Of a stretch of 64,000 nt of DNA, positions 5,507 through 36,527 are shown one piece after another. The notes beneath the pieces are model-generated. The model did no database searches. It worked only from the letters and a program-made list of their open reading frames with translations, and was not told the DNA's origin. Location: positions 770,445 through 834,444 of the forward strand of contig OZ252239.1 in NCBI GenBank assembly GCA_965249485.1, given 5' to 3'. How positions within the stretch are numbered: position 1 is the stretch's first letter; every line of letters starts with the position of its first letter. The position numbers and the translations under genes were made by a program. The stretch is from a bacterium (GTDB taxonomy: Bacteria; SM23-31).

Positions 5507-5581
5507 AACGATCTCACAATTTATTATTAGAGTATCTCAAATAAATATAAGGAATTATTGACGATAATTAAACCGGATAAA

Positions 5582-6983: not shown

Positions 6984-7109
6984 TGTATTGCTCTTTCTTA
7001 AATAATAGACGTAAAGTCAAAGCCTCATAATAGTTTGATTCATCAAATTTAAATTAGTTACACACTTCAGAAAGATAAATTAACATATCTACTTGTGACA
7101 AATGAATTA

Positions 7110-10100
7110 TTACTTAGTTTTCATTAACGTACGTTTCAGGCTAATTTCTCTGACAATTGCATAGATGACCGGTATAACGACCAATGTCAGAATAGTCGAT
7201 GTCACTATGCCACCGATCATCGGTGCGGCAATCCGCTTCCAGACTTGGGATCCTGCTCCGGTACTCCACAGAATCGGAACGAGTGCAAATAAGGTTGTCG
7301 TGACCGTCATCATTTTCGGGCGGACTCTATCAACTGCTCCGGACATAACCGCCTGGTAGATATGAGAAATATTGAAATCCGTCCCTTTCTCTTTTTTCAG
7401 AGCGTCATACGCGTGATCGATATAAATAATCATCACAATTCCTGTTTCTGCTGCTAAACCTGCAAGTGCAATAAATCCAACCCACACCGCTACGCTCATG
7501 TTGTAATCGAGAAAATACATCAGCCAGATTCCACCGACGAGCGCAAAGGGAACAGAGAGCATGACTATGAGTGATTCCCACACATTTTTAAAATTGAGAT
7601 AGAGCAGTACGAAAATAATCAGCAGCGTGATGGGGACAACAAATTTCAGACGTTTACTCGCCCTCTCGATATATTCCCACTGTCCGCTCCAGATTAGGTT
7701 ATATCCGGATGGAATTGCAACACGGGACTCAATTATCGGCCGCGCCTGTTCAACATAGGTTCCAACATCGATATCCCGCAGATCGATATAGACCCAGACG
7801 TTCGGACGTGAATTTTCGCTTTTTATAACGGGAGGACCTTTTTTTATGTTGATCGACGCAAGCTGTGCAAGTGGAATCTGTTCACCCCGCGGTGTTGGAA
7901 TGAGAACCCGTTTCAACTTTTCAGGTGTATCGCGGAATTCTCTCCCATACCGGAGGTTGATCGGGTACCGTTCAAGCCCTTCGACACTCTGGGAAATATT
8001 CATACCGCCGATAGCAGTCTGAATAACATCCTGCACATCGCTGATCGAGAGTCCGTACCGGGCGATCTCATCCCGGTTTATATCGATATTGAGATAATTG
8101 CCTCCTACCGATTTTTCGGAATAAGCGCTTGCCGTACCGGGAATGTCCTTCGCAACGGCAGCGATTTGTCTACCGAGTTCTTCGAGAATCGCAAGGTCCT
8201 GTCCCGCAATTTTTATTCCGATTGGTGTCTTGATTCCTGTTGACAGCATATCGATTCGCGTCTTGATCGGCATTGTCCACGCATTGGCCAACCCCGGAAA
8301 CTGAATTGCAGCATCGAGCTCCTGAATCAATTTGTCCGGGGTCATTCCCGGACGCCACTGATCTTCAGGTTTCAGGGTGATGGTTGTCTCGATCATGCTG
8401 AGCGGAGCGGGATCAGTTGCAGTTTCAGCCCTGCCAATCTTCCCGAAAACCGTTTCAACCTCCGGAAAACTTTTTATGATTTTATCGGTTTGCTGGAGAA
8501 GTTCCCGCGCTTTGGTGATAGAAATACCCGGATCGGTTGTCGGCATGTAGAGCAAATCACCTTCATAGAGCGGTGGCATGAATTCAGTGCCGAGTTGATT
8601 ATACGGAAAAATTGTAACGAGCAGTATTACCATGGAGGCCAGAAGCGTTAATTTCTTGAATTTGAGAACCGTCTTTATTACCGGTCTGTATAGCCAGATT
8701 AATGCCCTGCTGATTGGATTTTTTGATTCAGGCCTAATGTTACCTCGAATCAGAAGCCCCAGCAAGACAGGAATCAATGTAATTGCCAGTATAGAAGATG
8801 ATCCCAATGCAAAGGTCTTCGTAAATGCCAGTGGTCTAAAAAGACGCCCCTCTTGGGCTTGTAAGGTAAATACTGGAAGAAACGAAAGGGTTACAATCAG
8901 TAACGAGTAAAACAGGGCGGGACCGACTTCTTTTGCAGAATCGGCAATAATCTTCCAGTGCTCTTTTTTCCCGGTATCCCGTTCAAGATGTTTATGAGCA
9001 TTCTCGATCATAACGACTGCAGCATCGACAAGCACACCGATTGAAATCGCTATGCCTCCCAGAGACATAATATTTGCATTAATATTCGTGTAATTCATAA
9101 TGATAAAAGAAATAAGAATACTTAACGGGAGTGAAAGAACCGCAACCAATGCACTACGGATATGGAGTAAAAAGAGTAAACAAACTATCGCGACAACGAT
9201 ACTTTCTTCCATCAATGTTCCGGTAAGTGTGTCGATAGCTCTACGGATAAGATTGGTCCTGTCATACACCGGTAATATTTCCACGCCTTCAGGCAGTCCG
9301 GTTTTTATCTCATCGAGTTTCTTTTTTACATTGTCTATCACAGTAAGAGCGTTTTCACCATACCGCATTACAACAATCCCGCCGACCGTCTCACCGATGC
9401 CATCCCGCTCTACAAGTCCTCTCCTGATTTCCGGTCCGAGGCCGACAGTCCCGAGTTGACGGAGCAGAATCGGAATACCATTTTGATCGACACTTACCGC
9501 GATGTTTTTCAAATCATCTATTGACTGAATATACCCGTTACTGCGAACCATGAATTCAGTTTCGGCAAGTTCCAGTAACCGACCGCCGACTTCGTTATTA
9601 TTCCGCTGGATCGCACGACGGACAGTACTCAGCGGCAGGCCGAAAGCCATGAGCTTATCGGGATCGACCTCAACCTGATACTGTTTTACAAATCCACCGA
9701 TGCTTGCTACTTCCGCAACACCGGGAACGGATGCGAGTTCATAGCGCAGAAACCAGTCCTGAATCGAGCGGAGTTCGGCAAGGTTATGCCTGTCACTTTC
9801 GACAACATATTCAAACGCCCATCCCACACCGGTTGCATCGGGCCCAAGCTGCGGAGTTACTCCTGCTGGCAGCCGGGTCGATACATAATTCAGATACTCA
9901 AGGACACGGCTCCGTGCCCAGTACATATCGGTCCCATCTTCGAAAATGATATAGACGAATGATATTCCGAAAAACGAGTATCCTCGGACAGTTTTCGCAA
10001 AAGGCACCGACAGCATCTGTGTTGTGAGCGGATAGGTGATCTGGTTTTCGACGATTTCCGGAGCCTGTCCGGGATATTCTGTCAGAATGATAACTTGAAC

Positions 10101-10232
10101 ATCACTCAAATCGGGAATCGCATCGAGAGGTATGTTAACCGCCGAATATATTCCGATAATTATTACAAAAAGAGCCGCTATAATAACCAGCAGTCTGTTT
10201 TTTATGGAAGCATCGATTATTTTCTCGAGCAT
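7110..10232 (-). CDS. cusA: Heavy-metal efflux RND transporter, CusA/CzcA (HME-RND) family
   Basis: 1040 aa, 12-TM RND architecture, high similarity to CusA/CzcA throughout. TAA stop. 4-nt gap to the upstream adaptor gene. Confidence 0.95.
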   Translation of the reverse strand: MLEKIIDASIKNRLLVIIAALFVIIIGIYSAVNIPLDAIPDLSDVQVIILTEYPGQAPEIVENQITYPLTTQMLSVPFAKTVRGYSFFGISFVYIIFEDGTDMYWARSRVLEYLNYVSTRLPAGVTPQLGPDATGVGWAFEYVVESDRHNLAELRSIQDWFLRYELASVPGVAEVASIGGFVKQYQVEVDPDKLMAFGLPLSTVRRAIQRNNNEVGGRLLELAETEFMVRSNGYIQSIDDLKNIAVSVDQNGIPILLRQLGTVGLGPEIRRGLVERDGIGETVGGIVVMRYGENALTVIDNVKKKLDEIKTGLPEGVEILPVYDRTNLIRRAIDTLTGTLMEESIVVAIVCLLFLLHIRSALVAVLSLPLSILISFIIMNYTNINANIMSLGGIAISIGVLVDAAVVMIENAHKHLERDTGKKEHWKIIADSAKEVGPALFYSLLIVTLSFLPVFTLQAQEGRLFRPLAFTKTFALGSSSILAITLIPVLLGLLIRGNIRPESKNPISRALIWLYRPVIKTVLKFKKLTLLASMVILLVTIFPYNQLGTEFMPPLYEGDLLYMPTTDPGISITKARELLQQTDKIIKSFPEVETVFGKIGRAETATDPAPLSMIETTITLKPEDQWRPGMTPDKLIQELDAAIQFPGLANAWTMPIKTRIDMLSTGIKTPIGIKIAGQDLAILEELGRQIAAVAKDIPGTASAYSEKSVGGNYLNIDINRDEIARYGLSISDVQDVIQTAIGGMNISQSVEGLERYPINLRYGREFRDTPEKLKRVLIPTPRGEQIPLAQLASINIKKGPPVIKSENSRPNVWVYIDLRDIDVGTYVEQARPIIESRVAIPSGYNLIWSGQWEYIERASKRLKFVVPITLLIIFVLLYLNFKNVWESLIVMLSVPFALVGGIWLMYFLDYNMSVAVWVGFIALAGLAAETGIVMIIYIDHAYDALKKEKGTDFNISHIYQAVMSGAVDRVRPKMMTVTTTLFALVPILWSTGAGSQVWKRIAAPMIGGIVTSTILTLVVIPVIYAIVREISLKRTLMKTK

Positions 10233-10235
10233 GAT

Positions 10236-12173
10236 TTACAGCCTCCCTTGTTCGATGGAAAAATCATCGGCTGAATCAACATAGAGGACTTCATGGCTGC
10301 TTTCGAACGATTGTAATTCTTCAGACTGGTTGTCCATTAACTCTTTGAGATTCATTCCGCATCGGGGACACGTTCCACCGGATGATGAAAACACCAGATC
10401 CTCTTCCATCGGACAGGTATGTGTTACAGCGCCATCACCTATCACCAGGACAGTTTTCTCTGTCCATGAAGCGTATTCGGTGAGCGGATTAATATCGACA
10501 TTCGTAAGGTCGGATATTCTTATAATATCGCGGCCGGCAATGAGGTTATCAACTTTTGCCGTCTCTTCCGGTTCCATAGCATAAAGCGGCATACCGCAGC
10601 GGGGGCAGAATCCCTCTCCGTCAGAAAAGACAAGGTCTTCTTCCATGATGCAAAAATGAGTTACGTGCCCTTCGCCGAGAATAATCGCCGATTGGTTGCC
10701 CATTTTCTGCGATGTTATTTCCTCATGAGTGTGCTCTCCAACTTCTTCCTGCACCGGTTTACGTGCGGATGTTTGCTTCGACAGCATTTTCATCTGTGCT
10801 TCACGCAGCCGGCTCTCGGAATCGATGAGAAACTGTGCCGAAGTGACGACCCGTTCGCCACCTTCCAGTCCTTCGACAACAGTATAATAGTCATCCGACT
10901 CAATTCCGGTGACTACTTCACGCGGTTCAAATTTTCCTCCTCCGAGATCGAGAATGACAACACTCCGTTCCCCTGATATAATGACCGAACTCACCGGGAT
11001 GATTAAATCCTCCCGCTCTGATTGTGATGCTATTTCAACGTTTACATACATATCAGGTTTCAGCAGCATATCCGGATTGTCAAATTCAATCCGGACCCTG
11101 ATCGTTCTGGTTTGTGCATCGAGATAGGGATAAATAAACGATATAGTACCAGTGAATTCTTTACCCGGATAATACGTTAGGGTCATGGTTGCCTGCTGAC
11201 CGATTTTTACCCAGGGAAGTTCGTATTCATAGATTTCCGCAAGCATCCAGACATGTGACAGGTCAGCAATTTCATACAAATGCGTATTCGGGATGATGCG
11301 TTCACCACCCGTAATCATTCTGTGTCTGACAATGCCGCTAATAGGAGAGAACAGGGTCATATTTTTAGTGGCCTGCTGCGTATCTTTGAGGTGAGCGATC
11401 TGCTCGGGAGTAATATCCCACAACTCAAGACGTTTCCGTGTCGATTCAAGCAGATCGTTCGATTGCTGAGCGACTTCGGAATATGCAGCTCCCTCAAAAT
11501 AGTCGGTGAATCTCAGCGCCTGCAGGTATTCCTCCTGTGTGGTGACGAGATCGGGACTATAAATATCGATCAGCGGATCGCCCTTGGTTACCTGTTGTCC
11601 CGCGAAGCCGACATACAATTTCTCAGCCCATCCCGATACTTTTGTGGTGACACCCATTATGCGGGTTTCGTCATAGACAATACGTCCGACAGCCCGAATA
11701 GTACGGGAAAGTTGTTTCCGCTCGACCGGAACAGATTGTACGCCAATATTCTGAACGGTAACAGGATCGATCGATATCTGACCGGGTGCAGGACTACTGG
11801 TAATATTTCTCCTCACAAGATTCATGTTGCAAATTGGGCATAATCCCGGCTCGGTTTCTTGGACATTCGGATGCATTCCGCAGGTATAGTAATAATCAAC
11901 ACCGGTAACGCCTTCAAGATTGAGTTGAGATGGTGCCTGAGCTCCGGGAAGTTCATCATCATACACCGGAACGAGGTCCATACCCATCGGTGATTTTCCG
12001 GGATTTTCAGATACATAAGCCGGGTCCATCGGTGCGACCCAGTAAGCAACTGTTCGTCCTTCTGCATTGTCACCGTCAGCACCCAAAAAATCATACCGGT
12101 GAAAAACCCACTGGACGGCAATCACAATTATCAGAATGGTGATCCATGTACTGGTGCGTAATTTTCGTGACAT
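10236..12173 (-). CDS. cusB: RND efflux periplasmic adaptor (CusB/CzcB family) with three CxxC heavy-metal-binding domains, one N-terminal and two tandem C-terminal
   Basis: 645 aa. Membrane-fusion core, N-terminal YYTCGMHPNV...GLCPICNMNL, and C-terminal repeats HFCIMEEDLVFSDGEGFCPRCGMPL and HTCPMEEDLVFSSSGGTCPRCGMNL. Confidence 0.9.
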   Translation of the reverse strand: MSRKLRTSTWITILIIVIAVQWVFHRYDFLGADGDNAEGRTVAYWVAPMDPAYVSENPGKSPMGMDLVPVYDDELPGAQAPSQLNLEGVTGVDYYYTCGMHPNVQETEPGLCPICNMNLVRRNITSSPAPGQISIDPVTVQNIGVQSVPVERKQLSRTIRAVGRIVYDETRIMGVTTKVSGWAEKLYVGFAGQQVTKGDPLIDIYSPDLVTTQEEYLQALRFTDYFEGAAYSEVAQQSNDLLESTRKRLELWDITPEQIAHLKDTQQATKNMTLFSPISGIVRHRMITGGERIIPNTHLYEIADLSHVWMLAEIYEYELPWVKIGQQATMTLTYYPGKEFTGTISFIYPYLDAQTRTIRVRIEFDNPDMLLKPDMYVNVEIASQSEREDLIIPVSSVIISGERSVVILDLGGGKFEPREVVTGIESDDYYTVVEGLEGGERVVTSAQFLIDSESRLREAQMKMLSKQTSARKPVQEEVGEHTHEEITSQKMGNQSAIILGEGHVTHFCIMEEDLVFSDGEGFCPRCGMPLYAMEPEETAKVDNLIAGRDIIRISDLTNVDINPLTEYASWTEKTVLVIGDGAVTHTCPMEEDLVFSSSGGTCPRCGMNLKELMDNQSEELQSFESSHEVLYVDSADDFSIEQGRL

Positions 12174-12211
12174 TGTACTTTCCTTAGATTAGTTGTTTTT
12201 ATTAAATATTA

Positions 12212-13534
12212 TTATAAACGCTGACCTGTCAGAAACTCCAGGTTTGCGATATTTTTCTTGTATTCCGTCAGCAATCGGTAATAATCGAGTTCAAATGTTA
12301 AGAGTGTAATCTGGTTGTTTAAAAGGGTCAGAAAATCGACCTTATTGACTTGATAACCAGAAATAGCTGAACTCAATGACTGTGTGGCCTGCGGAATAAT
12401 GACCTCATGAAGCAGTTGTATCCGTTCATCTGTCTCATCAAGTGAGGCGGTTACAACTGCGATTCGGGCGTCGTTCGAATTTTTCATATCCTTGTATGAA
12501 GATTCTGCCGCACGGACTTCTGCCAGTGCTTCTGAAACACCGTTGTCTTGTTTTCTACCGCTCCACAGCGGCAGATTTACCGAAAAATGTGCTGAAAGGA
12601 AATCCGGACGCTGTTGACGCTGCCCGTAGATTACGCCGAATGTCATGTCAGGCCAGTATTGTTTTCGTTTGAGTGATGATGCAATTTCTCTTCGGGCAAC
12701 CTCTTTTCGTGCTGCATTCAACATGGGCCGCCGTTCTGCCGATGTCTGCTGCAGTGTTGCAATATCGAGCGAAACGGAAGAATGAGTTAGTTCTTCTACA
12801 GGACCGATTAGTATGTCTATCGGCCTGTTCAGGAGTGCATTAAGTTCAGCAGTGGAGGCTTCACGATTGTTCCGGTAGCTTATCAGTTTGTCGAGCAGTT
12901 TACTCATCTCAACCTGCGCTTTCAGCACATCCTGTTGTAGCCCTTCACCGACTTCATATTTTTTCGATGCAATTGAAATAAAATCGTTTAGTATCTGCTT
13001 ATTTTTGAGCGTGATAGCAACCGATTTGTCAATCAGGTAGATATCAAAGAACGCCAACGAAATGTCTTTAATTACAGCGTTTCTCGTGTCGACAGCCGTT
13101 AGTCCCGCGATGTCGAATGCTTCCTCGGCTATCTGCTCTTTCAATGATGATATACCGGGAAAAGGGATAGTCTGCTTCAGGGAAATCTGTTTTTGCGTCA
13201 TAGGTTCTACTGTAAATCCTGCATCAGTCAAAGGGAAATTTGCGATGTTCAGGCTCAAGCTTGGATCAGGCCATGCGCCTGCCTGCGGAATGCGCAGTTG
13301 TGCCGATTCACTTTTTTGATCAGCGGCGAGTATCTCAGGATTATCACGGAGCGCAGCTTCAATCAGGCTTTCAAGTGCTACTACGGCACCATTGTTGTTT
13401 TCGACTGAATACGTTTTTGTCGTACCTGCTAAAGCAAAGTCGATAACAGCGTTATGCTGTTGAAATGCATAGCCGGTGCGGGTCAAAACGGAAACCAACA
13501 TGATAACGGCAGTCAAAACTTTTTTTGATCGCAT
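12212..13534 (-). CDS. cusC: TolC-family outer-membrane efflux protein (CusC-like)
   Basis: 440 aa, signal peptide, two TolC-type coiled-coil repeats. Immediately upstream of cusB on the same strand. Confidence 0.85.
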   Translation of the reverse strand: MRSKKVLTAVIMLVSVLTRTGYAFQQHNAVIDFALAGTTKTYSVENNNGAVVALESLIEAALRDNPEILAADQKSESAQLRIPQAGAWPDPSLSLNIANFPLTDAGFTVEPMTQKQISLKQTIPFPGISSLKEQIAEEAFDIAGLTAVDTRNAVIKDISLAFFDIYLIDKSVAITLKNKQILNDFISIASKKYEVGEGLQQDVLKAQVEMSKLLDKLISYRNNREASTAELNALLNRPIDILIGPVEELTHSSVSLDIATLQQTSAERRPMLNAARKEVARREIASSLKRKQYWPDMTFGVIYGQRQQRPDFLSAHFSVNLPLWSGRKQDNGVSEALAEVRAAESSYKDMKNSNDARIAVVTASLDETDERIQLLHEVIIPQATQSLSSAISGYQVNKVDFLTLLNNQITLLTFELDYYRLLTEYKKNIANLEFLTGQRL

Positions 13535-17164: not shown

Positions 17165-18301
17165 CTAATTAAACTGTTTATTAAAGATTGGCAGAATCTG
17201 CAGACCTTTCGGGTTGCTTGCAATGTAGTTCAGGAGACCGATCTGAAGGCCGTCAACGCTGTCGGCATAATTAAAAATACCAAGCGTTACACCGTTGACG
17301 AGTCCCTGAATATAATTAACCGCACTCACAGAAAACCCTTCCATAACACCATTGTATTCCGGATTGCGGATAGTAACAAACAAGACAGATGCGGCTGCCC
17401 CTTTGATATGCCTGCCGCTTCCGACACCGATACCAGCAGCGCTGAGACCGGAAAGTTTATTTCCGGCGCCGACGAATAATCCGCCAAGACTGATACCGGT
17501 AATATCGTTTCCGGCACCAACAAAGAATCCTGAGTTGGCAAAACCGAGGATGTCGTTGCCTGCTCCAGTTGCAAATCATGATATTGCAATGCCTGTTAAA
17601 TCGTTTCCGCTCCCGATAGCGAACCCGGCAGTACCGTATCCCTTAAAATCGTTACCACTTCCAGCCGCAAATCCGGCAAGTGCAATTCCCTGAAAATCGC
17701 TTCCGCTGCCGGCAGCAAATCCCGCTAGCGCGACTCCCTCAAATAATTTTCCGCTTCCAACAGCAAACGGGGAAATTCCTAAGCCTCTAAAATTATTGCC
17801 ACTCCCGGTCGCTAACAGTGCACTTGATATTCCCGTAAACTGTTCTTCGGCTCCGCTTGCCAGCAAACCAAGTCCGATTCCGGTAAACCGCTCAGGTTGT
17901 TCAAGACCGATAACATTCAGCATGAGTCCTGACACGTCCTGGCCGCGCGTTCCGACACCACCGACGGTTATTCCCTTGATAATTCCTGCGTCCGGTGCCC
18001 AGATTCCTATCGCACCGCCTTTAATAATTGCATCTTCATTTTTTTTCGGCTTCCAGAGTGTAATATTCAGACCGGTCATCCGTTCGAGGCCATTATCACG
18101 GTAGTTGATTCGGAGTCCCGTGAATCGCAGTGAATTGCCGAAGCTAACCCCTTTACCGTTTACACCGATATCGACACTCTGCGAAGAGTCCTGCTCCTGT
18201 GCGTTTAAATTATCAGAGAAGGTAATATAACTCAATATAAACAAAGCAAGAATTATTACTGGTCGATTCACGATTACGGCTCCAATTTGATTTTTGATCA
18301 A
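17165..18301 (-). pseudogene. Gly-rich 16-residue-repeat secreted/outer-membrane protein with a C-terminal GLQIGLLNY module; interrupted by in-frame TGA at 17576-17578
   Basis: ORFs 17576..18301 and 17165..17383 share a frame. Repeats G.(A/S)..GF.(A/V)G(S/A)GNDF.G continue across the stop, and the TGA occupies the conserved Gly position of the repeat (GGA to TGA). Confidence 0.6.
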
Positions 18302-20560: not shown

Positions 20561-21742
20561 TTACGTCGTGTTTCGTAATCTATCAATATTTTCCAGAGCT
20601 AATTTTCCGGTTTCTCCATCTGAATCTAATGCAACAACTTTTTTATATTTTTTCAATGCTTCTTTAATTTTTCCTAATTTTTCTAATGCAATACTCCAAT
20701 TATAATAAGCTTTAACGTACTGTGGATCAAGCTCAATGGCTTTTATATATTTTTCAATGGTTTCATCATGCCTACCTAGATTACCCAGAGCAACACCCCA
20801 GTTATTATAGGCTTTGACATCCTGAGGATCAGTTTCAGTAACTTTTTTATATTTTTCAATTGCTTCATCATATCTACCTTGATTACCCAGTGTAACACCC
20901 CAATTATAAAGTGGTAAACAATAATTTGGATCCATATTCGCTGACATTTCAAACTGTTCAGTAGCCTTCGAAAGCACTCCTGCTTCAGATAACATTATAC
21001 CATAACTGTTTCGAATTGTAGGATGTGGATATAATGCAAGAGCAGTAGAATATTTTCCTTCTGCAATCGTAAATTGCTTTTCTGTCGCATGTTTGACCGC
21101 TTCATGCGCAAGTTGAAAAGCAAGTACTTGCTTTTCATTTTCTTTTTGGTCTAATTCACTTTTAAGTGTATCAATTTTTCTTTTGTAATCGTCAAGTTTT
21201 TCTAATTTATACACAGTAGGTTCTATACCATCAATCCACGTGCAGAGATCCTTTTCAAAAAGTTCTATCCAATGCTGTTCAGATTCATATGCACGGTATA
21301 GATAATTTTTTTCTATCTCTAATTTATTTCTGAACTCAAGCACTTGCTTTAATTGTTCGCCCGGATCTGCCATCATGTCGTCCGGTGTTTTTCGAAAATA
21401 AAACCATATATCTATTCCTGCCTTTTTCGCAACTTCATATTCCTCTTCAAATCCGGATGTGTATTTGCCTGATTTACTCGGTTTGGATCCCCATCTTTTC
21501 CATAACAGCATCACTGCTAAATCGCATGATTTTAAATCTTTATTTATGAGTTTTTGCGGCCTTCCCTTTCCCAATAGAGTATCTTCCCATCCGACAGGTT
21601 CCAATAGCAGGCTAATTGATTTTGCCTTAATATCATTAATTTTGTCTACAATGTTTCCGAATTGTTTTCGCTCGGGATTCAAATCGTTAGGAGATCCAAT
21701 GAAGATTCTTTTTCTTTCAAAATATATTGTTGATTTCGGCAT
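20561..21742 (-). CDS. DUF4062-like N-terminal domain, coiled-coil, and C-terminal TPR-repeat protein
   Basis: N-terminus IFIGSPNDLNPERKQF...SCDLAVMLLWKRWGS...SGFEEEYEVAKKAG resembles DUF4062 (vFiSS..DL..eR...cDi.v.ilg.rYG..tE.Ey.A). Central heptad coiled coil. Four or more TPR motifs (AYNNWGVALGNLGRHDETIEKYIKAIELDP...). Confidence 0.65.
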   Translation of the reverse strand: MPKSTIYFERKRIFIGSPNDLNPERKQFGNIVDKINDIKAKSISLLLEPVGWEDTLLGKGRPQKLINKDLKSCDLAVMLLWKRWGSKPSKSGKYTSGFEEEYEVAKKAGIDIWFYFRKTPDDMMADPGEQLKQVLEFRNKLEIEKNYLYRAYESEQHWIELFEKDLCTWIDGIEPTVYKLEKLDDYKRKIDTLKSELDQKENEKQVLAFQLAHEAVKHATEKQFTIAEGKYSTALALYPHPTIRNSYGIMLSEAGVLSKATEQFEMSANMDPNYCLPLYNWGVTLGNQGRYDEAIEKYKKVTETDPQDVKAYNNWGVALGNLGRHDETIEKYIKAIELDPQYVKAYYNWSIALEKLGKIKEALKKYKKVVALDSDGETGKLALENIDRLRNTT

Positions 21743-21794
21743 TTAAATTTTCCTTTGCCGTTGTGCAACCGGCATTTTTATAAGCAATATTGTG

Positions 21795-22035
21795 ATCTAC
21801 TAAAAACTATTTCAAATATATCTCCAACCAAGCAGCCTGTTCCTTATCATTGATAATCCTATGGAATGGTTCACGGATGCCCTGTCCTTCCAACGGAAAC
21901 CGGATAAATTTGACCGTTTTGCCGTGTTTTTCAAAGCTGTGTAGTACTCAATCGCCTGCGATACCGGCACAACAGGGTCGTCATCGCTGTTGATAATGAG
22001 CAGGGGAGTGGTCACGTTCGAAATAAGATTCACCG
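21795..22035 (-). pseudogene. Frameshifted C-terminal fragment of a second S9 peptidase paralogue
   Basis: VTTPLLIINSDDDPVVPVSQAIEYYTALKNTAK, then in another frame FIRFPLEGQGIREPFHRIINDKEQAAWLEIYLK*, matching the C-terminus of the intact S9 peptidase at 18526-18760. No upstream catalytic body. Confidence 0.6.
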
Positions 22036-22299
22036 GAGAATATTTATCTTACAAATTGAATGCACAAATATAATGAATAATAAAAGGTGAAACAACATTC
22101 ATAATACAAAAATATTTTATTCACCTTATCCTTACTTATTGGTAGTTTGGCGTGTGTGCATATTGGAAAAAGATTGGATAATTCTCCTCTGTACCCTCAC
22201 TTTAAAAAAAGTTTTTGCATTTATGCTTCTTTCTGATTACATTTTTTTTTCAAACCCACCCTTTGTAACGTAACCCGCCGTGAGCTTTGGAGGTAGATA

Positions 22300-23380
22300 A
22301 TGGCTTTGCAGAATTCAGAAGAACAAGCTGCAAAAACTGAAGAAAAAACTGCTCAGGATGTCCTGTATATAGGACTCGATCTTGGCACATCACAAAGTGC
22401 AGTAGCAACCAACACCGGAATTCTGGTTAACACTGCCAGTGTTGTTGGATGGCCAAAAGACCTGATATCTTACAAACTGCATCAGAAAGCAGTCCTGTTT
22501 GGTGACGAATGTGTACGAAACCGAATGTCGGTAGATGTTTTTTATCCGCTTGAGAAAGGTGTCATTTCCACATCGTCCAAGGGGAAAAAAACTGACGATT
22601 CCGAACGGAAAGATACTGCACCTGGTGAGTTTATTCGGCATATGATAACGCTTGCTGAACCGAATCAAAATCAGCAGAAATTTCTTGTTGTCGGTGTGCC
22701 TGCGGAAGCTTCTGTTGAGGATAAACAGGCCATTATCAATACCGCTGCTGGTCTGGTTGATTCTGTTCTTGTTGTTTCTCAGCCATTCCTCGTCGCGTAC
22801 GGTCTCGGTTTGTACGGTTTCTCACTTGTTGTCGATATCGGTGCCGGAACGACCGATATTTGCCGCATGCACGGAACAATACCTGAAGAATCCGATCAGA
22901 AAACCTCATTCAAAGCGGGTACTCACATCGATTCACTCCTATTTGATCTCCTCAGATCAAAATATCCGAAAGCCAACATCACAAAAATGATGGCGCAGCA
23001 TTTTAAAGAGAAATATGCGTTTGTCGGCAATATTAATGAACAGATTTCGGTTGAGCTCAACATTGGTGGAAAAAACAGGACACTACGATATTACAAAAGA
23101 AGTAAAAGATGCGTGTGAGAATATTGTACCTGACATTGTGGCGACGCTCAGGCACCTGGTATCAAGTTTCGATCCTGAATTTCAGGATGAGCTCAGAAAT
23201 AATGTGCTCTTTGCGGGATGCGGAAGCAGAATTCGCGGACTTTCTCAGTTGGTAGCATCAGAGCTTGCTGATCTTGGACCGATTAACACCCAAATCGTTG
23301 AAGACCCGGTTTATGCCGGCGCTTTCGGAGCGCTCCGGATTGGCCAGGACATGCCCCTCAGTGAATGGAAACATATGTAG
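22300..23380 (+). pseudogene. MamK-like actin-family ATPase (actin/MreB/ParM superfamily); frameshifted in an A6 run at 23070-23075
   Basis: YIGLDLGTSQSAV (phosphate-1), VVGVPAEAS, VDIGAGTTDI, FAGCGSRIRGL, and overall collinearity with MamK. ORF1 (22300..23118) and ORF2 (23015..23380) overlap in different frames. Deleting one A of GGAAAAAACAGG restores ...IGGKTGHYDITKEVK. Confidence 0.75.
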
Positions 23381-23462: not shown

Positions 23463-23666
23463 CTAACTCACTTCAAAAAACTGACTCTCATCACCGTCGG
23501 GGGAGATGTTGAGCGTTACTTTCTTAGCGCATTTCGGATACCAACCCACAAATGCATTGCGTTGTTTATTAAGGTAAATCCGGCTGTACACATTACAGCA
23601 CTTGAAATGGATACCAACAAATGGCCGGGATTCGGATTTTTCTTTGTTACTGTCGTGTTGTGTCAT
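23463..23666 (-). CDS. Small Cys-containing hypothetical protein, translationally coupled (ATGA overlap) to the macro-domain gene
   Basis: 67-aa ORF. Its ATG overlaps the TGA of the upstream gene (23663-23666). H21/C23/C24/C46 give a possible zinc site. No family recognised. Confidence 0.35.
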   Translation of the reverse strand: MTQHDSNKEKSESRPFVGIHFKCCNVYSRIYLNKQRNAFVGWYPKCAKKVTLNISPDGDESQFFEVS

Positions 23667-24193
23667 GCCGAAAAAGTCCTCCGCAGTTCGTTTTCGAACA
23701 CAGTAAAACTTTCATTTCCGAAAAGAACAAACCGGATCGTTTTAAGGTGTTTTGATTCGGTCAGAAATGTTATGGATTCATTGAGCATAATCTGAGCACA
23801 CAAATGTATCAGAAGTCCACCGACACCGGTACTTATTGCTGGGAAGGCAATCGATTCGAGTCGGTTCTCTTCAGCAAGCCGCAAGCTTGCCTTTGTAGTC
23901 TTCCGAACTTTTTCTTCGTCAGTCTTCAGGTCTTGACCCATACCAGCGGCATGGATAACATGTCGGGCAGTCAGCGTCCCCCCCGACGTGATAACAGCAC
24001 CGCCGACTTCGACCGGCCCCTGTTTGACCGCTTCAGTCTCGATTATCTGGCCGCCTTTTTTCTTGATCGCACCTGCAACTCCTGAACCCATCCAAAAATG
24101 GTTATTTGCAGCATTGACGACAGCATCGACATCCTGTTCTGTAATATCGCCTTCAACGACCTCAACCGATCCATGACCAATAGTTACTTTCAT
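23663..24193 (-). CDS. Macro-domain protein (O-acetyl-ADP-ribose deacetylase / ADP-ribose-binding, YmdB-like)
   Basis: VEVVEGDITEQDVDAVVNAANNHFWMGSGVAGAI...AFPAISTGVGG matches macro-domain motifs. Confidence 0.9.
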   Translation of the reverse strand: MKVTIGHGSVEVVEGDITEQDVDAVVNAANNHFWMGSGVAGAIKKKGGQIIETEAVKQGPVEVGGAVITSGGTLTARHVIHAAGMGQDLKTDEEKVRKTTKASLRLAEENRLESIAFPAISTGVGGLLIHLCAQIMLNESITFLTESKHLKTIRFVLFGNESFTVFENELRRTFSA

Positions 24194-24493: not shown

Positions 24494-25741
24494 ATGGAAA
24501 CAAAAAAATTATTTAATTGGGAAGTTGAAAAAAAGATTAAAGAGCTTGAAGGCGGCCTCCAGTTTAAGGAGGTCACTATGGTCGATCTGCAGGAGTTTGT
24601 ACTTCAACACAATTACTATAATGGGGAGAACGATGAGGTCTTTGTCTACCTCTGCAATGCATACTTCGATCGGTCAGAACAGGATAAAGCGGAAGAAGTT
24701 TTCGCGAAAATTTTTGAGAAATGGAAAATTGTCAGCAACAAATTTCCTCAAAACATACTGAAACTGAAGCATCTCGCCGATCTGATTATCAGTAAAATTA
24801 AATATGTTCCGGACAAAATGGTCGAGCACTTTAAACATCAGAATGAACAGGAATTGTCCCTGTTGATAGGGTATTGTATCGACCGGTATGTCACGTATGA
24901 AAGAGCAGAACTGCTCGGCCCGTTTCTCCAAAAACTACCTTACAAAGGAGATGATCCGCAGACGCTCTTTAACCTGATCAACGCTACTGTCGAAATCAAT
25001 TCCGATCTGGTCGATGATTATCTGAAACTGGCGCTGAAAGCAATAAAAGATCCGATTTCATTCCTGAATAACATCCAGTTCACATCGGAACTGTTCAGCG
25101 TTGTCCATCCTGACACACTGAAAGAGATCCTCGATTTGCCGGGTATCAATACGAAATTCCATCAGTTTATCAAATTTGAATCCTTTATGGAATCGCTCGA
25201 TAAAATTCCGTCGCTCGATGCACCGTTTTTTATTAAAATTTCGAACCAGCTCTACGAAAAAAACACCACTCTGGCGATCCAGTATGGCTTGCGTGCTATC
25301 AAAAAATCTGATTTTCAATTGAGCGAACATCTTAAGGAAATTAAATGCGCATGTGAAAACGATCCGCCTGAACAACCTTCTATTGCGGAGCAGATTATGC
25401 TCACCGCTCTCAAAGATGGAAATGCAAAAAAAATCTGGCTTGTTGTTAATAACAGCTATTTTGTTAATGCCACGAACATCACACAGTATGATGCAGCATT
25501 GAAGTACACCGCGGCCGCCGTGAAAATCAGCAAAGCGAACTCCGATATGATCTCACAACATATCCAGTTTCTCATGCGCCGAATGCGGTCGGTCGATGGT
25601 CCGGAAGGTATCCTCGAAAGGGACAGGTATAAACACAAAGCAGAGAATTCACAGTTCAGCCGCCAGATAGATATGTTCAGAGTCCTCTACCAGAAAAAAA
25701 TCAGGAAAGAAATTTCTGATTTAAAGCACGTATACCTGTAA
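24494..25741 (+). CDS. Hypothetical all-alpha protein (415 aa), no recognisable domain
   Basis: Long uninterrupted ORF flanked by AT-rich intergenic regions. Helix-rich composition. TAA stop. Confidence 0.55.
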   Translation: METKKLFNWEVEKKIKELEGGLQFKEVTMVDLQEFVLQHNYYNGENDEVFVYLCNAYFDRSEQDKAEEVFAKIFEKWKIVSNKFPQNILKLKHLADLIISKIKYVPDKMVEHFKHQNEQELSLLIGYCIDRYVTYERAELLGPFLQKLPYKGDDPQTLFNLINATVEINSDLVDDYLKLALKAIKDPISFLNNIQFTSELFSVVHPDTLKEILDLPGINTKFHQFIKFESFMESLDKIPSLDAPFFIKISNQLYEKNTTLAIQYGLRAIKKSDFQLSEHLKEIKCACENDPPEQPSIAEQIMLTALKDGNAKKIWLVVNNSYFVNATNITQYDAALKYTAAAVKISKANSDMISQHIQFLMRRMRSVDGPEGILERDRYKHKAENSQFSRQIDMFRVLYQKKIRKEISDLKHVYL

Positions 25742-25939: not shown

Positions 25940-27247
25940 TTGAAAAAAATGGTTTGTCCAAAAAACTTTAATCGGATACTGTTTACCATTCTTGCTTTAG
26001 TGTTGCTGCCTCTGAGCTCATCATTTGGGCAAAACGAGACGGTAAAAGTTTTGACGGTGGAAAGTGCAATAACGCCAGTAAGTGCTGAATATATCATGAA
26101 AGCGATTGAGCAGGCAGAGTTGGAAAACGCCGAGTGCATCATCATTCAACTCGATACACCCGGCGGTCTGATGACTTCAATGGAAGATATCATCAAGAAA
26201 ATATTAGGATCACAAGTTCCCGTAATTGTTTATGTGGCCCCGAGCGGTGCAACCGCAGGTTCAGCCGGAGTGTTTATCACCATGTCTGCTCACATTGCAG
26301 CGATGGCGCCGGCAACGAACATCGGTGCAGCCCATCCAGTCAGTCTCGGATCTCCAGTCGATACGGCGAGTGTCATGGAAGAAAAAATCACCAATAACGC
26401 CGCGGCATATGCCCGCTCTATTGCCGAGAAAAGGGACAAAAATGCGGATTGGGCGGAAAAAGCAGTGCGCGAAAGTGTTTCGATTACGTCGAACGAAGCG
26501 CTCGAAATCGGTGTAATTGACCTCATTGTCCCGACAGTCGATTCTCTACTTTCCGCGATAGACGGCAGGGAAATTGAAGTAATTCTCGGCACCAAAACGC
26601 TCAAAACAAAAGAGGCGCGAATCGAAGAAATTGAACTCGGTTTGCGGTACAGGATACTCTCCCTGATTGTCGACCCGAATATAGCTTACATATTCATGAT
26701 GCTCGGTATGGCAGGTGTAATGCTTGAACTCTACAATCCAGGCTCGATTTTCCCTGGAGTCATTGGCGGTATTTCTCTTATTCTTGCCTTTTACGCGATG
26801 CAGACACTGCCCGTTAATTACGCTGGGCTCTTACTCATAATTCTTGCTGTTGTACTCTTTATTCTGGAGGTCAAAGTGACAAGTTTCGGAATGCTGACGG
26901 TCGGCGGCATTGTTGCGCTTACGTTAGGTTCGGTTATGCTGTTTGATTCCCCGGAAGCAATTCTGCGTGTTTCCTGGAAAGTGATAATCCCGACAGTGAT
27001 GTTGACGGCGTTATTCTTTAGCATCATTATCGGTCTTGCAATCAAAGCGCAAAAAAGACGTCCTTCCATCGGGAATGAAGCTTTAATCGGGGAAACGGGA
27101 GTCGCTCAGACTCGAATCAGGAAAGAAGGCCAGATATTGCTGCACGGCGAGATTTGGAAAGCAACAAGTGAGGATACAATAAAAAAAGGTGACTCGGTAA
27201 AGGCGATCAGCATTAAAAATCTCGAAGTGAAAGTGGAAAAAATTTGA
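25940..27247 (+). CDS. NfeD-family membrane-bound ClpP-class serine protease (stomatin operon partner)
   Basis: Signal peptide, ClpP-like domain (GGLMTSMEDI, SGATAGSAG), TM segments, C-terminal OB-fold. Followed by a stomatin gene. Confidence 0.9.
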   Translation: MKKMVCPKNFNRILFTILALVLLPLSSSFGQNETVKVLTVESAITPVSAEYIMKAIEQAELENAECIIIQLDTPGGLMTSMEDIIKKILGSQVPVIVYVAPSGATAGSAGVFITMSAHIAAMAPATNIGAAHPVSLGSPVDTASVMEEKITNNAAAYARSIAEKRDKNADWAEKAVRESVSITSNEALEIGVIDLIVPTVDSLLSAIDGREIEVILGTKTLKTKEARIEEIELGLRYRILSLIVDPNIAYIFMMLGMAGVMLELYNPGSIFPGVIGGISLILAFYAMQTLPVNYAGLLLIILAVVLFILEVKVTSFGMLTVGGIVALTLGSVMLFDSPEAILRVSWKVIIPTVMLTALFFSIIIGLAIKAQKRRPSIGNEALIGETGVAQTRIRKEGQILLHGEIWKATSEDTIKKGDSVKAISIKNLEVKVEKI

Positions 27248-27345: not shown

Positions 27346-28110
27346 ATGCCTCCTGTTACATCTGGTTTTATTGTCGTCAGTATCATAGCGATATTCCTAT
27401 TAGCCAGTATGATCAAAATCCTCAGGGAATATGAGCGAGGTGTCATTTTCCGTTTGGGACGCTTGATCGGGGTAAAAGGGCCCGGCATTATCATTCTGAT
27501 CCCGTTGATCGATCGTATGGTCAAAATCAGTCTTCGTACTATCGTTATGGATGTTCCTCCACAGGATATCATAACAAAAGACAATGTCTCAGTCAAGGTG
27601 AATGCCGTGATCTATTTCAGGGTGTTGGGCGCTGATAAGGCAGTGGTGGAGGTGGAAAACTTTATGTTTGCAACATCACAGCTCGCACAGACGACACTCC
27701 GGAGCGTTCTCGGCCAGGCAGAGCTTGACGAACTCCTTTCCGAGCGCGATAAAATTAATCTGAAACTACAGCAGATCATAGACAGTCATACCGATCCGTG
27801 GGGTATCAAAGTCTCAATGGTCGAGGTAAAACACATCGACCTGCCGCAGGAGATGCAACGTGCAATGGCAAAACAAGCAGAAGCCGAACGTGAACGGCGC
27901 GCGAAAATCATCGCAGCGGAAGGTGAGTTTCAGGCAGCAACCAAGCTTGGCGAAGCTGCTGAGATCATCAGTAAGAATCCGAGTACGCTGCAGCTCCGTT
28001 ATCTCCAGACACTAGTCGAAATCTCAAGTGCAGGTACTTCTTCGACTATTATTCCTCTACCGATCGATCTGCTGAAGCCTATAATTGATAAATTGGGTGG
28101 CAGTAAATAG
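27346..28110 (+). CDS. SPFH/Band-7 stomatin-family protein
   Basis: N-terminal TM, then the SPFH core [21 protein letters not shown] and coiled-coil [27 protein letters not shown]. Confidence 0.9.
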
Positions 28111-28887: not shown

Positions 28888-29321
28888 GTAATGATTTCCT
28901 GAAAGTCAACAATTTTCATATACATTCTGATAATTATTTTCTGATTCCTCAAAACACTATAATCAAACTGTCACTCCAGCTGGAATTCTAACAATCTACC
29001 GGGACGAAATGGAGAAATCTCAACATTAATGATTATTTTATAAAAAGTCATTCGAGATCATCATTCTGTAAGGGGCCGAGCATCTGACGAGGAGTTTATA
29101 ATTTAAAGAAAAGAGCTATATTCTAAATAATTAAGAAAACAAGTCCATAATGATTAGATATATGTTTTAAACACGGGTCTGAAAACTTTAAAACGAGTAG
29201 TATTAAAAAAAAACGTGCAAATATAATAAAAACCTCACTATATTTTATAAAGCACATATATCATTCCTTACATTATAGACATTTTCTTACTCCTGACTAT
29301 CCCGAGAAAGGAGATAATATC

Positions 29322-29959
29322 ATGGGTATGTGGTCTACATTTGTCGATGTAATCCAGAACGGTATCCTTGTATTTACCAATGTCTTCGGGGGGAGCATGG
29401 GTACGGCGATCATTGCTGTCTCACTGCTCATTCGCATGGCATTGTTCCCGCTCACACTAAAGCTCGCACATCGTTCTTTCATTCGTAACAATATGCTCAT
29501 AAAACTGAAACCAGAACTTGACACGTTGAAGATACATTTCAAGAATCAACCGGACCGGTTAACCCGCGAGACCATGAAAGTTTTCAACCGCAACGGGATC
29601 AAAATGGTTGATACGAGCAACTTGTTTGGTGGCCTGATTCAGGCCCCAGTTTTTGTGGTCTCTTCTCGGCAATACGAAATATTATCACTGGAGGCGGTCG
29701 ATTTGTCTGGATAAAAGATATAGCAAAACCCGACTTTTTGCTGACACTCTGTGTCACGTCTATAGCAGTATTTGCCGCTTCTCTCAACCCGAATCTTGCT
29801 GAACACAACCGGATGCTGCTTATTATGCTACCAGCTGTAGGGACACTCTTTTTTCTCTGGTACAACTCTGCAGGAATCGCTCTCTATTGGGGTACGACAA
29901 GTTTTGTTACCATTATTCAAAATGGTATCATCATGCATAAAGCAAAACATACGAAATAA
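29322..29959 (+). pseudogene. yidC: Short YidC/Oxa1-family membrane insertase, frameshifted near a T5 run at 29650-29654
   Basis: ORF1 ...LIRMALFPLTLK...LIQAPVF, then in the -1 frame ...GLFSAIRNIITGGGRFVWIKDIAKPDF (the FLWIKDLS motif), continuing into ORF2 29738..29959 (LYWGTTSFVTIIQ). Adding one T restores a single ORF. Confidence 0.7.
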
Positions 29960-29984
29960 ACATATATATTATCCAAAATAGTGT

Positions 29985-30022
29985 TTGAGCTCTGCTGTTA
30001 TTAATGACGGTAGAGCTTTTTT
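29985..30022 (+). terminator. Rho-independent terminator after yidC
   Basis: AGCTCT...AGAGCT hairpin followed by TTTTTTTG. Confidence 0.5.
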
Positions 30023-30117
30023 TGTTTGTACCGGTTAAAATATTTTCGTGGAAATTGAACATGTACGTTCGTACATTTATACAAGTGGTTGCAGTAAATA
30101 TCATGTAATTATATTAA

Positions 30118-30470
30118 ACCCGGAGCGTGGAAAGATGGCCGCGTTTCCCGATTATTTGGGAGATGAGGAAAGTCCGAACTCCACAGGGCAGGATGCCCCG
30201 TGAAAACGGGGTCGTTCCGGTTCACCGGAATGCAGGAAAGTGCCGCAGAAAATATACCGCCCCGTTCCTCGGAATGGGGTAAGGGTGAAAAGGCGAGGTA
30301 AGAGCTCACCGCGTTTTCGGTAACGGAAACGGCAGGGTAAACCCCATCCGGAGCGAGACCAAATAGAGGAGAAGAGGCTGCCCGTCTCATTTGACTCCCG
30401 GGTAGGTCGCATCAGATAAATGGCCATCCGCGACAGAATTCGGCTTACCGAGCGCTTCGGGTTTAGTATA
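30118..30470 (+). ncRNA. rnpB: RNase P RNA (bacterial type A)
   Basis: Conserved blocks GAGGAAAGTCCG, AGGGTGAAAAGG...GGTAAGAGCTCACC, GGTAAACCCCATCCGGAGC...CAAATAG, ACAGAATTCGGCTTAC, all in canonical order. No credible ORF across it. Confidence 0.85.
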
Positions 30471-31639: not shown

Positions 31640-32367
31640 ATGAATAAGCTAATAAATTTCTTTCTATCTATTTTCCTCTGCCTGATTTTTACGGACAATC
31701 TCAGTGCACAGTACGGATCAGACATAATAGAAACTTCAGATAGTGATTTGGAAGTTACATTTTTGGGACACGGTTCACTTCTGTTTGAGTATGACGGTCT
31801 CATAATATATGTTGATCCATCGGGATTACAGAGTACTGAAAATCTCCCGAAAGCAGACCTGATACTTATAACTCATGAGCACGGTGATCATTTTCGTCCG
31901 GAACTCATTGATGAACTGCGGAATCATTCAGCCATTGTGATTACAAATGAACGATGTGCTGAACGTGTTGACGGTGCAATGATTATGAAAAATGGTGATA
32001 CACGTACCATTATGGGACTTTCTATCGAAGCGGTACCGTCATATAATCTTGTGCATAAAAATGAGTCGGGTGTGTTTTTCCATCCAAAAGGGCGGGATAA
32101 TGGTTATGTTATAACTTTCGGTGATACATGAGTTTATTGTGCAGGAGATTCCGAAAAATGAAGGCGCTCAAGGAAATTGATGTTGCTTTTCTTCCAATGA
32201 ATCTGCCCTATACAATGACTCCCGAGATGGTTGCAGATGCTGCTCAGAATTTCAAACCCTCAATTCTCTATCTCTACCATTACAGAAATGGTGATACGGA
32301 AACATTAGAGCAATTGATGGAAAATGTGAAAGGTGTAGAACTTCGTATCAGGAAAATGTACAACTAA
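31640..32367 (+). pseudogene. MBL-fold metallo-hydrolase (secreted), disrupted by in-frame TGA (32129-32131) and a one-base deletion in an A run (32154-32158)
   Basis: ILITHEHGDHF metal-binding motif. ...GYVITFGDT*VYCAGDSEK, then a frame shift to MKALKEIDVAFLPMN... (compare the paralogue's TTVYHAGDT...[10 protein letters not shown]). An A6 run in place of A5 would give GDSEKMKALKEID. Start at RBS GAGGAG plus ATG 31640. Confidence 0.7.
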
Positions 32368-35507: not shown

Positions 35508-36527
35508 ATGAAAACGTCATTGATACCTGAACAAATCTGGGGACAGCTTGAATCGGTTATCCAAGACAACACATCATTCACCATCACGTCACATGTCAAT
35601 CCGGATGGAGATGCCGTCGGATCGGAACTTGCACTCTATAACTTTCTGACAAAAAAGCGTAAAAGAGTCAGAATAATAAATTGTAACTCTCTTCCGGTAG
35701 TCTATCACTTTCTCACAGAATCTCAGGAACTGTATCGTGAATTTTCAGAAGCAGATAACGACTGGATAAACGGATGTGATGTCATTTTTATACTCGATAT
35801 CAGCAATAAAGACCGACTGAGCTGAATGCAGCCGATTATATCGGGGAGTCCGGCTTACAAAATCTGCATTGACCATCATGAGGACAACAATCTTGATGCC
35901 GAATTAAAAATCACCTCCGAATCGGCGAGTGCTACTGCTGTGTTAATATATGATCTGTTAATAAACTTGAAAGCTGCCATCGACCAGGAGACGGCAATGG
36001 CACTTTACGTCGGAATATTGACCGACACAAATTCATTTTCCGAGCCGAATACAACATCCCGGGCGCATGAAGTTGCCTCCGAATTGATGCAGTACGGTAT
36101 CCGGTCTGAGGAGATATACCGGAAAATATTTCACATCAACAGCTGGAATCGAACAGAATTATTTAAAGATACACTTGCAACGTTGTCGAGCAGCTGCGGA
36201 GGGAAGCTCGCATGGATGAAAATAACCAGAGAAATGGTTGAAAAGAGTGGAGCGCTCCGTGAGGAAATCGAGGGATTCGTGGACTATCCGCTCACCATTG
36301 ACGGAGTGCAGATTGCCATTCTATTTCTTGAAATTCCGGGAACGGGTACAAAAATCAGTCTCCGGGCAATAAACTCACTCAATGTTCACGAGCTCACCCA
36401 AAGGTTCGGGGGAGGTGGTCACCGTCATGCTGCGGGGATTCGGCTTTACGAAGTATCTATTGACAAAGCGATAACACAGGTACTTGATGAAGCATGTCGC
36501 TACTTTAACAGTCAGAAAAGTCAATAG
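35508..36527 (+). pseudogene. nrnA: Bifunctional oligoribonuclease/pAp-phosphatase NrnA (DHH-DHHA1), interrupted by in-frame TGA at 35823-35825
   Basis: DHH motifs HVNPDGDAVGS and ICIDHHEDN, DHHA1 GGGH. ORF1 ends ...ILDISNKDRLS*, and the next codon is the ATG of ORF2 (MQPIISGSPAYKICIDHH) in the same frame. Collinear with intact NrnA. Confidence 0.8.

Follow-up and report, generated by a model that had tools for sequence, protein, structure and literature searches.

A frameshifted MamK-family actin gene outside a magnetosome context, and its solenoid neighbour, in a KSB1-like bacterium

MamK, whose filaments line up the magnetosomes of magnetotactic cells, serves in textbooks as the example of a bacterial actin devoted to one organelle, and a MamK-like gene with no magnetosome genes beside it raises two questions: what its filament might serve, and, where the gene is broken, whether it still serves anything. 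Such a gene lies at positions 22300-23380 on the + strand of the 64,000-nucleotide (nt) stretch of DNA from an uncultured, metagenome-assembled bacterium analysed here, which we call the window (770,445 to 834,444 of contig OZ252239.1, assembly GCA_965249485.1; all coordinates given below count from its first letter). The explanation that we consider the best overall, and probably correct, is that the gene belongs to a clade of non-magnetosome actins, termed group A below, whose members have a solenoid protein encoded close by as their partner, and that it has been inactivated in this genome. The first-pass annotation, made from the sequence without database searches, had described a MamK-family filament protein interrupted by a frameshift in a run of six A residues, and the layout of the gene bears the frameshift out:

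22289-22293, + strand: GGAGG ribosome-binding site, read from the sequence, 6 nt before the ATG at 22300
22300-23075, + strand: N-terminal part of the MamK-family actin, about 258 codons, containing DLGTS, VVGVP, VSQPF and DIGAGTTD
23070-23075, + strand: A6 run in which the extra A shifts the frame by +1; A5 in L090, AAG CAG in L001 and L003
23076-23380, + strand: C-terminal part of the same actin in the +1 frame, about 101 codons, containing AGCGSRIRG, with the stop codon TAG at 23378-23380

Two overlapping open reading frames (ORFs) are read on the + strand, 22300-23118 with 272 amino acids (aa) and 23015-23380 with 121 aa, in place of one uninterrupted frame. The upstream ORF leaves the frame and ends at the TGA at 23116-23118; its product as written consists of 258 residues followed by 14 out-of-frame ones and lacks the adenosine motif together with the C-terminal quarter, so that it cannot form the complete fold. 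Deletion of one A from the run restores a single ORF of 359 aa that ends at the downstream TAG, which agrees with the length of about 360 aa proposed at first pass. In this repaired protein the actin motifs are found collinear with those of MamK, as had also been claimed: DLGTS (phosphate-1, 22378-22392), VVGVP (22687-22701), DIGAGTTD (phosphate-2, 22834-22857) and, in the downstream frame, AGCGSRIRG (adenosine, 23213-23239). In tblastn, the alignments of orthologous proteins start in frame 1 and continue in frame 2, the change falling within 23072-23106. The closest relative found, an ENA contig with 91% nt identity (L090), keeps the upstream leader from about 22110 and reads TGG-AAAAA-CAGG where the window reads TGG-AAAAAA-CAGG, while two more distant orthologues (L001, L003) have AAG CAG at this site and all more distant orthologues are uninterrupted there. 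Since L090 has five A residues and the other orthologues are unbroken, the single-frame repair is independently confirmed.

The shift could in principle be programmed, the full-length protein then arising from the sequence as written either by a +1 shift of the ribosome or by slippage of the polymerase on the A run. A runs can permit slippage, and within the 128 nt over which the two frames overlap (22991-23118) a shift at any point would join them. The arrangement is, however, not conserved, as L090, L001, L003 and L010 all have a single frame; moreover a +1 (or -2) shift is needed, whereas A_AAA_AAC used as a -1 slippery site gives the wrong frame, and a run of six A residues is short for efficient transcriptional slippage. 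We regard a programmed shift as extremely improbable.

Profile, structure and tree comparisons place the repaired protein with the MamK-family actins and not with MreB or ParM. The NCBIfam MamK model (NF040964; the sequence family follows Derman et al., with >30% identity) aligns at 378 bits (E 4e-113) over residues 22-358 of 359 and model positions 1-329 of 335, a score that stays below the curated cut-off of 400 bits. Other models score far lower, namely BeeR (NF053558) with 184 bits against a cut-off of 530, MreB/Mbl (PRK13927 and TIGR00904) with 71 and 56 bits against cut-offs of 293 and 366, and salactin with 29 bits. The top match in the PDB is MamK (5LJW, E 1.8e-76, query 16-358 against 6-340 of 347), an end-to-end alignment for which chance does not account, followed at a distance by BeeR (8R2N, E 1e-34) and MreB (1JCE, E 4e-10). 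Pfam recognizes the protein at the superfamily level, through the MreB_Mbl (74 bits) and Actin models alone; Alp7A_C reaches 19 bits, below its cut-off, and no ParM model matches at E<=0.01. The orthologues are labelled 'rod shape-determining protein' in the databases and not MamK, and this 'MreB' label is a superfamily-level annotation only.

A neighbour-joining tree was calculated from 150 sequences (342 columns, 200 bootstraps, rooted on MreB; ParM was not included). The window protein and its orthologues form group A with 100% bootstrap support, and group A joins groups B, C and D with 96.5% support in an assemblage of KSB1-like, Latescibacterota and Gemmatimonadota proteins that leaves the MamK of Magnetospirillum magneticum AMB-1 outside. 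Group A falls inside the MamK/BeeR superclade and outside the clade formed by BeeR (98.5%); the placement inside MreB or ParM that the first-pass annotation had named as the contrary outcome was not seen. Over the trimmed alignment the window protein is 40% identical to AMB-1 MamK, 43-51% to other MamK-family clades, 32% to BeeR and 27% to MreB. The magnetosome MamK of 'Ca. Magnetobacterium casensis' (Nitrospirota) is itself reported to be about 40% identical to Magnetospirillum MamK (PMC4818849), and the window protein thereby lies within the sequence spread of true MamKs, yet on a branch of its own. For BeeR the published identity to MamK is 25-30% (PMC11929497), which leaves it much further from MamK than the window protein. 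Group A, with its separate and well-supported clade, is not orthologous to magnetosome MamK.

The family is small: of 1.84 billion cluster representatives searched exhaustively, only 124 match at E<=1e-30. A protein search of JGI data returned no relatives in the range of 79-99% identity. The homologues carry the label candidate division KSB1 or just 'bacterium', and a type IX secretion system (T9SS) sorting domain in the window fits the FCB superphylum; group A is an uncharacterised MamK subfamily of KSB1-like bacteria within that superphylum. A literature search found BeeR, and nothing on MamK-clade actins of about 40-50% identity in non-magnetotactic bacteria.

Comparison with the characterized systems brings out what is particular to group A. 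The AMB-1 MamK (5LJW, 5JYG, 5LJV) is collinear with the window protein over 335 of its 347 residues and shares with it the phosphate-1, phosphate-2 and adenosine motifs as well as a similar length, whereas the window protein has no magnetosome genes nearby, belongs to a separate clade, is frameshifted in its present copy, carries Gln in place of Glu143 and GCGS in place of GGGS, has an insertion of 8 residues (SSKGKKTD) after the PLEKGVIS motif, and is accompanied by a TPR-like orphan rather than by MamJ, MamY or McaAB. BeeR from Opitutus terrae demonstrates that bacteria without magnetosomes also have relatives of MamK (PMC11929497); it shares the actin fold and motifs and sets a precedent for another function, but it forms its own clade and has a disordered N-terminal domain of about 35 residues together with the contact residues of a three-stranded tube. 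MreB of Thermotoga maritima shares the actin superfamily with the window protein and serves as the outgroup in the tree.

Could the gene nevertheless be a true magnetosome MamK, from an organism that is or recently was magnetotactic, with the gene cluster located elsewhere in the genome? The best profile and structure matches are to MamK, and the identity to Magnetospirillum MamK equals that of Nitrospirota MamK. A second MamK-family gene of the same genome adjoins feoB and a rubrerythrin-like gene, and the relatives include Latescibacterota, in which magnetosome clusters have reportedly been described. Against this, Pfam searches with the main ORFs of the window revealed no magnetosome-type domains (CDF, HtrA/magnetochrome, LemA and others), and magnetosome-type genes are likewise absent from the orthologous loci with called genes (L001-L004, L090), so that no cluster of the mamA/B/E/I/M/O/P/Q type surrounds the actin in any of these; the absence of mam genes nearby noted at first pass extends, in other words, to these relatives. 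Group A stands apart from AMB-1 MamK in the tree, and its score lies below the curated cut-off. Furthermore, the MamK model passes that cut-off for three non-magnetosome relatives (L056 with 482, L045 with 423 and L044 with 402 bits) around which no Mam families are found, the neighbours being DtxR/FeoB, HAD/DnaA and unannotated genes, respectively. Because such proteins exceed the cut-off without mam neighbours, a match to the model does not imply magnetosomes. We consider a magnetosome function very improbable.

The second MamK-family gene belongs to group B, the sister clade of group A (79% bootstrap), which occurs in the same organisms and shares the GCGS motif. This paralogue (P0123, 358 aa, about 50% identical) is intact and lies on a contig that equals the contig of the window in length (3,779,686 bp) and is taken as the same genome. 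Its orthologues (P0036, P0064; loci L005-L009, L017, L018, L023, L026, L032) stand directly before a conserved ORF of 73-95 aa, feoB and a rubrerythrin-like gene and have an Amidase_3 gene on their upstream side. Group B differs from group A in keeping the catalytic Glu and in having FeoB and the rubrerythrin-like protein as neighbours. It is intact both in the genome of the window and in a sister genome without a working group A gene.

If magnetosomes are not the cargo, the neighbourhood of the gene may indicate what is. The first-pass annotation had named a macro-domain protein and an orphan helical protein as neighbours, and both are present where expected in a block whose features are as follows:

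20561-21742, - strand: DUF4062-TPR gene by Pfam, PDC-S60 by PADLOC (70 bits); absent from L090 and L001
21810-22057, - strand: C-terminal remnant, with a frame change, of an S9 peptidase paralogue that is intact at the same place in L003
23463-23666, - strand: Cys-containing protein of 67 aa, found between actin and orphan only in the closest relatives
23663-24193, - strand: Macro-domain protein, found between actin and orphan only in the closest relatives
24494-25741, + strand: orphan of 415 aa, a TPR-like all-alpha solenoid, heading the row orphan-NfeD-SPFH
25940-27247, + strand: NfeD-family membrane protease gene (Pfam, synteny), second in the row
27346-28110, + strand: SPFH/Band 7 (slipin) gene (Pfam, synteny), third in the row

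What did not stand is the impression that the orphan is an incidental neighbour, as it is the only gene that travels with the group A actin subfamily. It has no match in Pfam, and its family is narrow, with only 24 homologous clusters among 5.8 billion; several of these clusters are on contigs equal in length to contigs of group A actins (40821, 8443, 15693, 27994, 39781 and 112233 bp). An AlphaFold2 model predicts an all-alpha solenoid with a predicted local distance difference test score of 89, for which Foldseek returns generic TPR matches only, OGT and LGN among them. The C-terminal tail, ...TGKKF-LI, is nearly the same in all 17 homologues that were aligned.

A check of the neighbours of orthologues, as suggested at first pass, recovered the orphan as a conserved neighbour. 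In L001-L004 and L010 (77-78% identity) the order is one or more S9 peptidases (-), the actin (+), a 66-aa protein (-), Macro (-), an orphan of about 409 aa (+), NfeD (+) and Band7 (+). In the window and in L001, L002, L003, L010, L011, L013, L028 and L090 the actin has the orphan, the NfeD-Band7 pair or both as neighbours. Macro and the small genes drop out in the more distant loci of group A, where the actin adjoins the orphan (L013) or converges on an inverted orphan-NfeD-Band7 row with intergenic gaps of 13-26 nt (L011, L028).

The two genes also decay together. In the window the orphan carries an insertion of 1 nt, a T after an A7 run at about 25701 where both L090 and the sister genome L094 read AAAAAAA-C, which exchanges the tail TGKKFLI for IRKEISDLKHVYL (25695-25741) and lies 2.6 kb from the frameshift of the actin. 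The sister genome itself (ctg820255_34x_c, 3.79 Mb, 34x coverage), whose Band7 is 94% identical to that of the window, retains of the actin only residues 157-258 and 307-359, in three frames, the N-terminal 156 residues being gone, and its orphan is deleted internally, stops prematurely and has lost its stop codon. Intact copies of Macro, of the small-protein gene, of NfeD and of Band7 are found there, the 67-aa and Macro genes thus surviving without the actin, and an independent 14x assembly (L093) has a structure identical to that of L094. A pairing of actin and orphan is suggested because their adjacency outlives rearrangement, because the orphan family is narrow and occurs alongside group A, and because the two decay jointly. 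The series from intact genes, through one frameshift in each, to fragments beside intact neighbours offers a kind of natural-experiment evidence that the two proteins would work together.

Alternatively, the adjacency of the actin to the orphan and the NfeD-SPFH pair might be inherited synteny without function, the actin acting instead in envelope growth or division. In Nitrospirota and Desulfobulbaceae the MamK-family gene is flanked by Amidase_3 and response-regulator-SPOR genes, an amidase being found beside the actin in 44 loci, and an Amidase_3 gene likewise precedes the group B paralogue. P0170, which at 44% identity is the most divergent orphan, moreover stands alone, with no actin, NfeD or Band7 within 8 kb. 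The adjacency nonetheless outlasts both the inversion of the row (L011, L028) and the loss of the intervening genes (L013); in L094 actin and orphan decay jointly while the flanking genes stay intact, and the window has private frameshifts in both. We therefore think that synteny without function is unlikely. The NfeD and SPFH proteins are at most candidate cargo and not dependent components, because both genes persist without the actin-orphan pair.

Whether the lesion in the actin gene is real, and not an error of the assembly, bears on how the window copy should be regarded. Disruptions are found in several other genes of the window. A repeat-protein gene (GxxxxGFxxGxGNDx repeats; 17168-18301, - strand) has an in-frame TGA at 17576-17578, in a codon that the repeat pattern reserves for Gly and that is GGC in L090. 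A gene with a metallo-beta-lactamase (MBL) fold (Lactamase_B_3; 31641-32367, + strand) has TGA where L090 has CGA and L094 has CAA, as well as a 10-nt deletion at about 32156; since the 8-nt insertion in the L094 copy is its own, this gene decays independently in the two genomes. A DHH/DHHA1 (NrnA-like) gene (35508-36527, + strand) is split by a TGA at 35823-35825, where L094 has AGA, into ORFs of 105 and 233 aa. Finally, a YidC-like (60KD_IMP) gene (29322-29959, + strand) has a 1-nt frameshift beside C4 and T5 runs at about 29644-29654, within a segment of about 1.06 kb (28974-30036) that is missing from L090 and L094. The S9 peptidase remnant beside the inserted DUF4062-TPR gene belongs to these lesions as well.

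Several observations weigh against a real, inactivating lesion, and against the proposed partnership. In the comparison with L090 the gene has a ratio of non-synonymous to synonymous substitution rates (dN/dS) of 0.066 before the shift and 0.089 after it (dS 0.33); being about equal on both sides, the ratio indicates that the downstream part has been under purifying selection for nearly all of the divergence, and the lesion is either very young or not real. The shift is a change in homopolymer length, the classic site of long-read errors, and the names of the ENA relatives (ctgN_NNx_c/l) suggest long-read metagenome assemblies. All lesions of the window are private to one assembly, the divergent P0170 orphan stands apart from the actin as described above, and the link between orphan and actin is drawn from adjacency inside one family-level clade.

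It could accordingly be argued that the extra A and the extra T of the orphan are long-read consensus errors and that a working 359-aa actin is made. Besides the position of the shift inside an A6 run, the naming of the relatives and the evenly low dN/dS, this reading can invoke L090, which at 2.17x is full of such indels, the intact and conserved leader and ribosome-binding site, and the third 1-nt shift, beside the C4 and T5 runs of the YidC-like gene. Yet three TGA codons made by substitution and a 10-nt deletion are not errors of homopolymer length, and substitution errors at the rate of three stops should be accompanied in 64 kb by far more than 3-4 genes broken by indels. The lesion in the orphan, in addition, is an inserted T that leaves the run length unchanged, and the two frameshifts fall exactly in the two genes that are fragmented in the 34x sister genome, with which the second assembly agrees. 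We regard a pair of consensus errors as the less likely reading. A real lesion is preferred because the orphan has a private insertion of its own and both genes are fragmentary in L094 and L093 beside intact neighbours, and because substitution stops and a 10-nt deletion are atypical of homopolymer errors. We regard the lesion in the actin as likely to be real and very recent, and the gene in this genome is probably a young pseudogene and not the source of a working filament. Of the 'MamK-family filament' of the first-pass annotation, then, the family and the non-magnetosome context hold, whereas a working filament is unlikely, with actin and partner both broken here and present as fragments in the sister genome.

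All three nonsense codons in the window are TGA. A recoding of TGA was considered and rejected, as TGA ends 13 of 48 long ORFs and closes the Macro and NfeD genes exactly at the ends of their orthologues, and as the codons of the relatives at these three sites stand for Gly, Arg/Gln and Arg. Five other overlapping ORF pairs on the same strand were tested as frameshifts: four of them (30493/31553, 42295/42885, 43384/43550 and 57991/57677) match different Pfam domains or none and look like separate genes, and the fifth (54018/53048) gave no clear outcome.

The members of group A differ from MamK in a catalytic residue. The motif VSQPF (22774-22788 in the window) is present in all seven group A sequences, among them the orthologues of L001, L003 and L010-L013, whereas nearly all sequences of other clades have VSEPF; at the position of this Gln, Glu is kept in nearly all MamK, BeeR and MreB sequences (VSEPF, PEPF or EEPM). 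The Gln of the window protein aligns with the catalytic Glu143 of MamK, while the equivalent of Asp161 is intact, and in the adenosine motif of groups A and B, GCGS replaces GGGS. Mutation of E143 or D161 in MamK abolishes ATPase activity and filament dynamics (PMC5059902). These comparisons suggest that ATP hydrolysis in group A would be altered, probably slower, with longer-lived filaments.

Eukaryotic actin has a Gln (Gln137) at the position equivalent to MamK Glu143. Hydrolysis would for this reason be altered rather than lost.

How the pair might act in the intact relatives can be sketched from these data. The actin of about 360 aa would polymerise with ATP into filaments of the MamK type, and the TPR-like solenoid protein would be its adaptor or regulator, possibly by means of the invariant basic C-terminal tail; together they may position some non-magnetic cellular structure. 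In the genome of the window the extra A in the A6 run would have inactivated the actin, in a lineage that as a whole would be losing the module of actin and partner; the intact MamK-family paralogue beside feoB persists elsewhere in the same genome.

Upstream of the actin, the region 20561-22057 is a variable hotspot, in which the DUF4062-TPR gene, inserted between the S9 peptidase and the actin, is a candidate defence gene. L010 has a shorter copy (427 aa) of the second S9 peptidase, and in L094 genes for LmuB/SMC-like ATPases (2635-5646 of that locus) lie between the S9 peptidase and the actin; insertions into the hotspot are the probable cause for the loss of the second S9 gene and, in L094, for that of the first half of the actin gene. 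Elsewhere the Pfam content of the window comprises a copper P-type ATPase, CusCBA-type efflux, peptidases, a ferritin-like gene, cytochrome oxidase, MurB and a PilT-like ATPase. The metal-efflux genes form a block on the - strand (3071-13534), which combines a P1B ATPase of the copper type bearing two HMA domains, a small protein with a T9SS tail and a resistance-nodulation-division system of CusA, CusB and an outer-membrane factor. The window further contains a class A RNase P RNA (30121-30463, 241 bits), a thiamine pyrophosphate riboswitch (50143-50236) upstream of a TonB-dependent receptor gene (50321-52705), and four tRNA genes (54756-55220; Pro-TGG, Arg-TCT, His-GTG and Glu-TTC).

Other clades of the MamK family have partner sets of their own. 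At loci L046-L089 (Nitrospirota, Thermodesulfovibrionia, Desulfobulbaceae, Aminicenantes and others) an AmiC-like Amidase_3 gene lies upstream and a response-regulator-SPOR gene downstream, an arrangement that hints at a role in septal peptidoglycan. In a clade of Latescibacterota and Gemmatimonadota the MamK-family gene stands between a TPR gene and a ParB-like gene. In many members of the family (representatives P0173-P0197) the actin domain forms the C-terminal end of a longer chain, which N-terminal extensions bring to 520-1230 aa, and in L044 (7764-9887) an extended protein of 707 aa is encoded in tandem with a plain copy of 345 aa. MamK-family genes were also seen on contigs labelled as archaeal (Thermoplasmata, 'uncultured archaeon'; L045, L073, L077); in L045 the gene adjoins a DnaA-type gene, and for that reason the binning of this contig may be wrong.

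These observations could be taken further. Group A actins and their TPR-like partner may constitute an undescribed two-component cytoskeleton that positions a non-magnetic membrane structure, possibly an NfeD/SPFH microdomain, with the window and the sister genome as successive stages of its loss; the MamK family would then consist mainly of non-magnetosome filaments with several partner sets, such as amidase and SPOR regulator, TPR and ParB-like proteins, or FeoB and a rubrerythrin-like protein, and magnetosome MamK would be one specialised branch. We hold this wider picture, taken as a whole, to be speculative and rather unlikely.

For annotation, the window assembly stands out by an unusually high density of disrupted genes, and annotators should check the reads. 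The iron-linked MamK-like locus of group B, in a seemingly non-magnetotactic lineage, is also worth attention. The interest of group A itself lies in the comparative series and not in the window copy. Its members are as close to Magnetospirillum MamK as the MamK of Nitrospirota is, without the magnetosome context, and they add to the actin a lineage-restricted TPR-like partner and a Glu-to-Gln change in the catalytic site. The series thereby provides a concrete pair of proteins, and with it a possible new filament-adaptor system, in a family whose best-known member is devoted to a single organelle.

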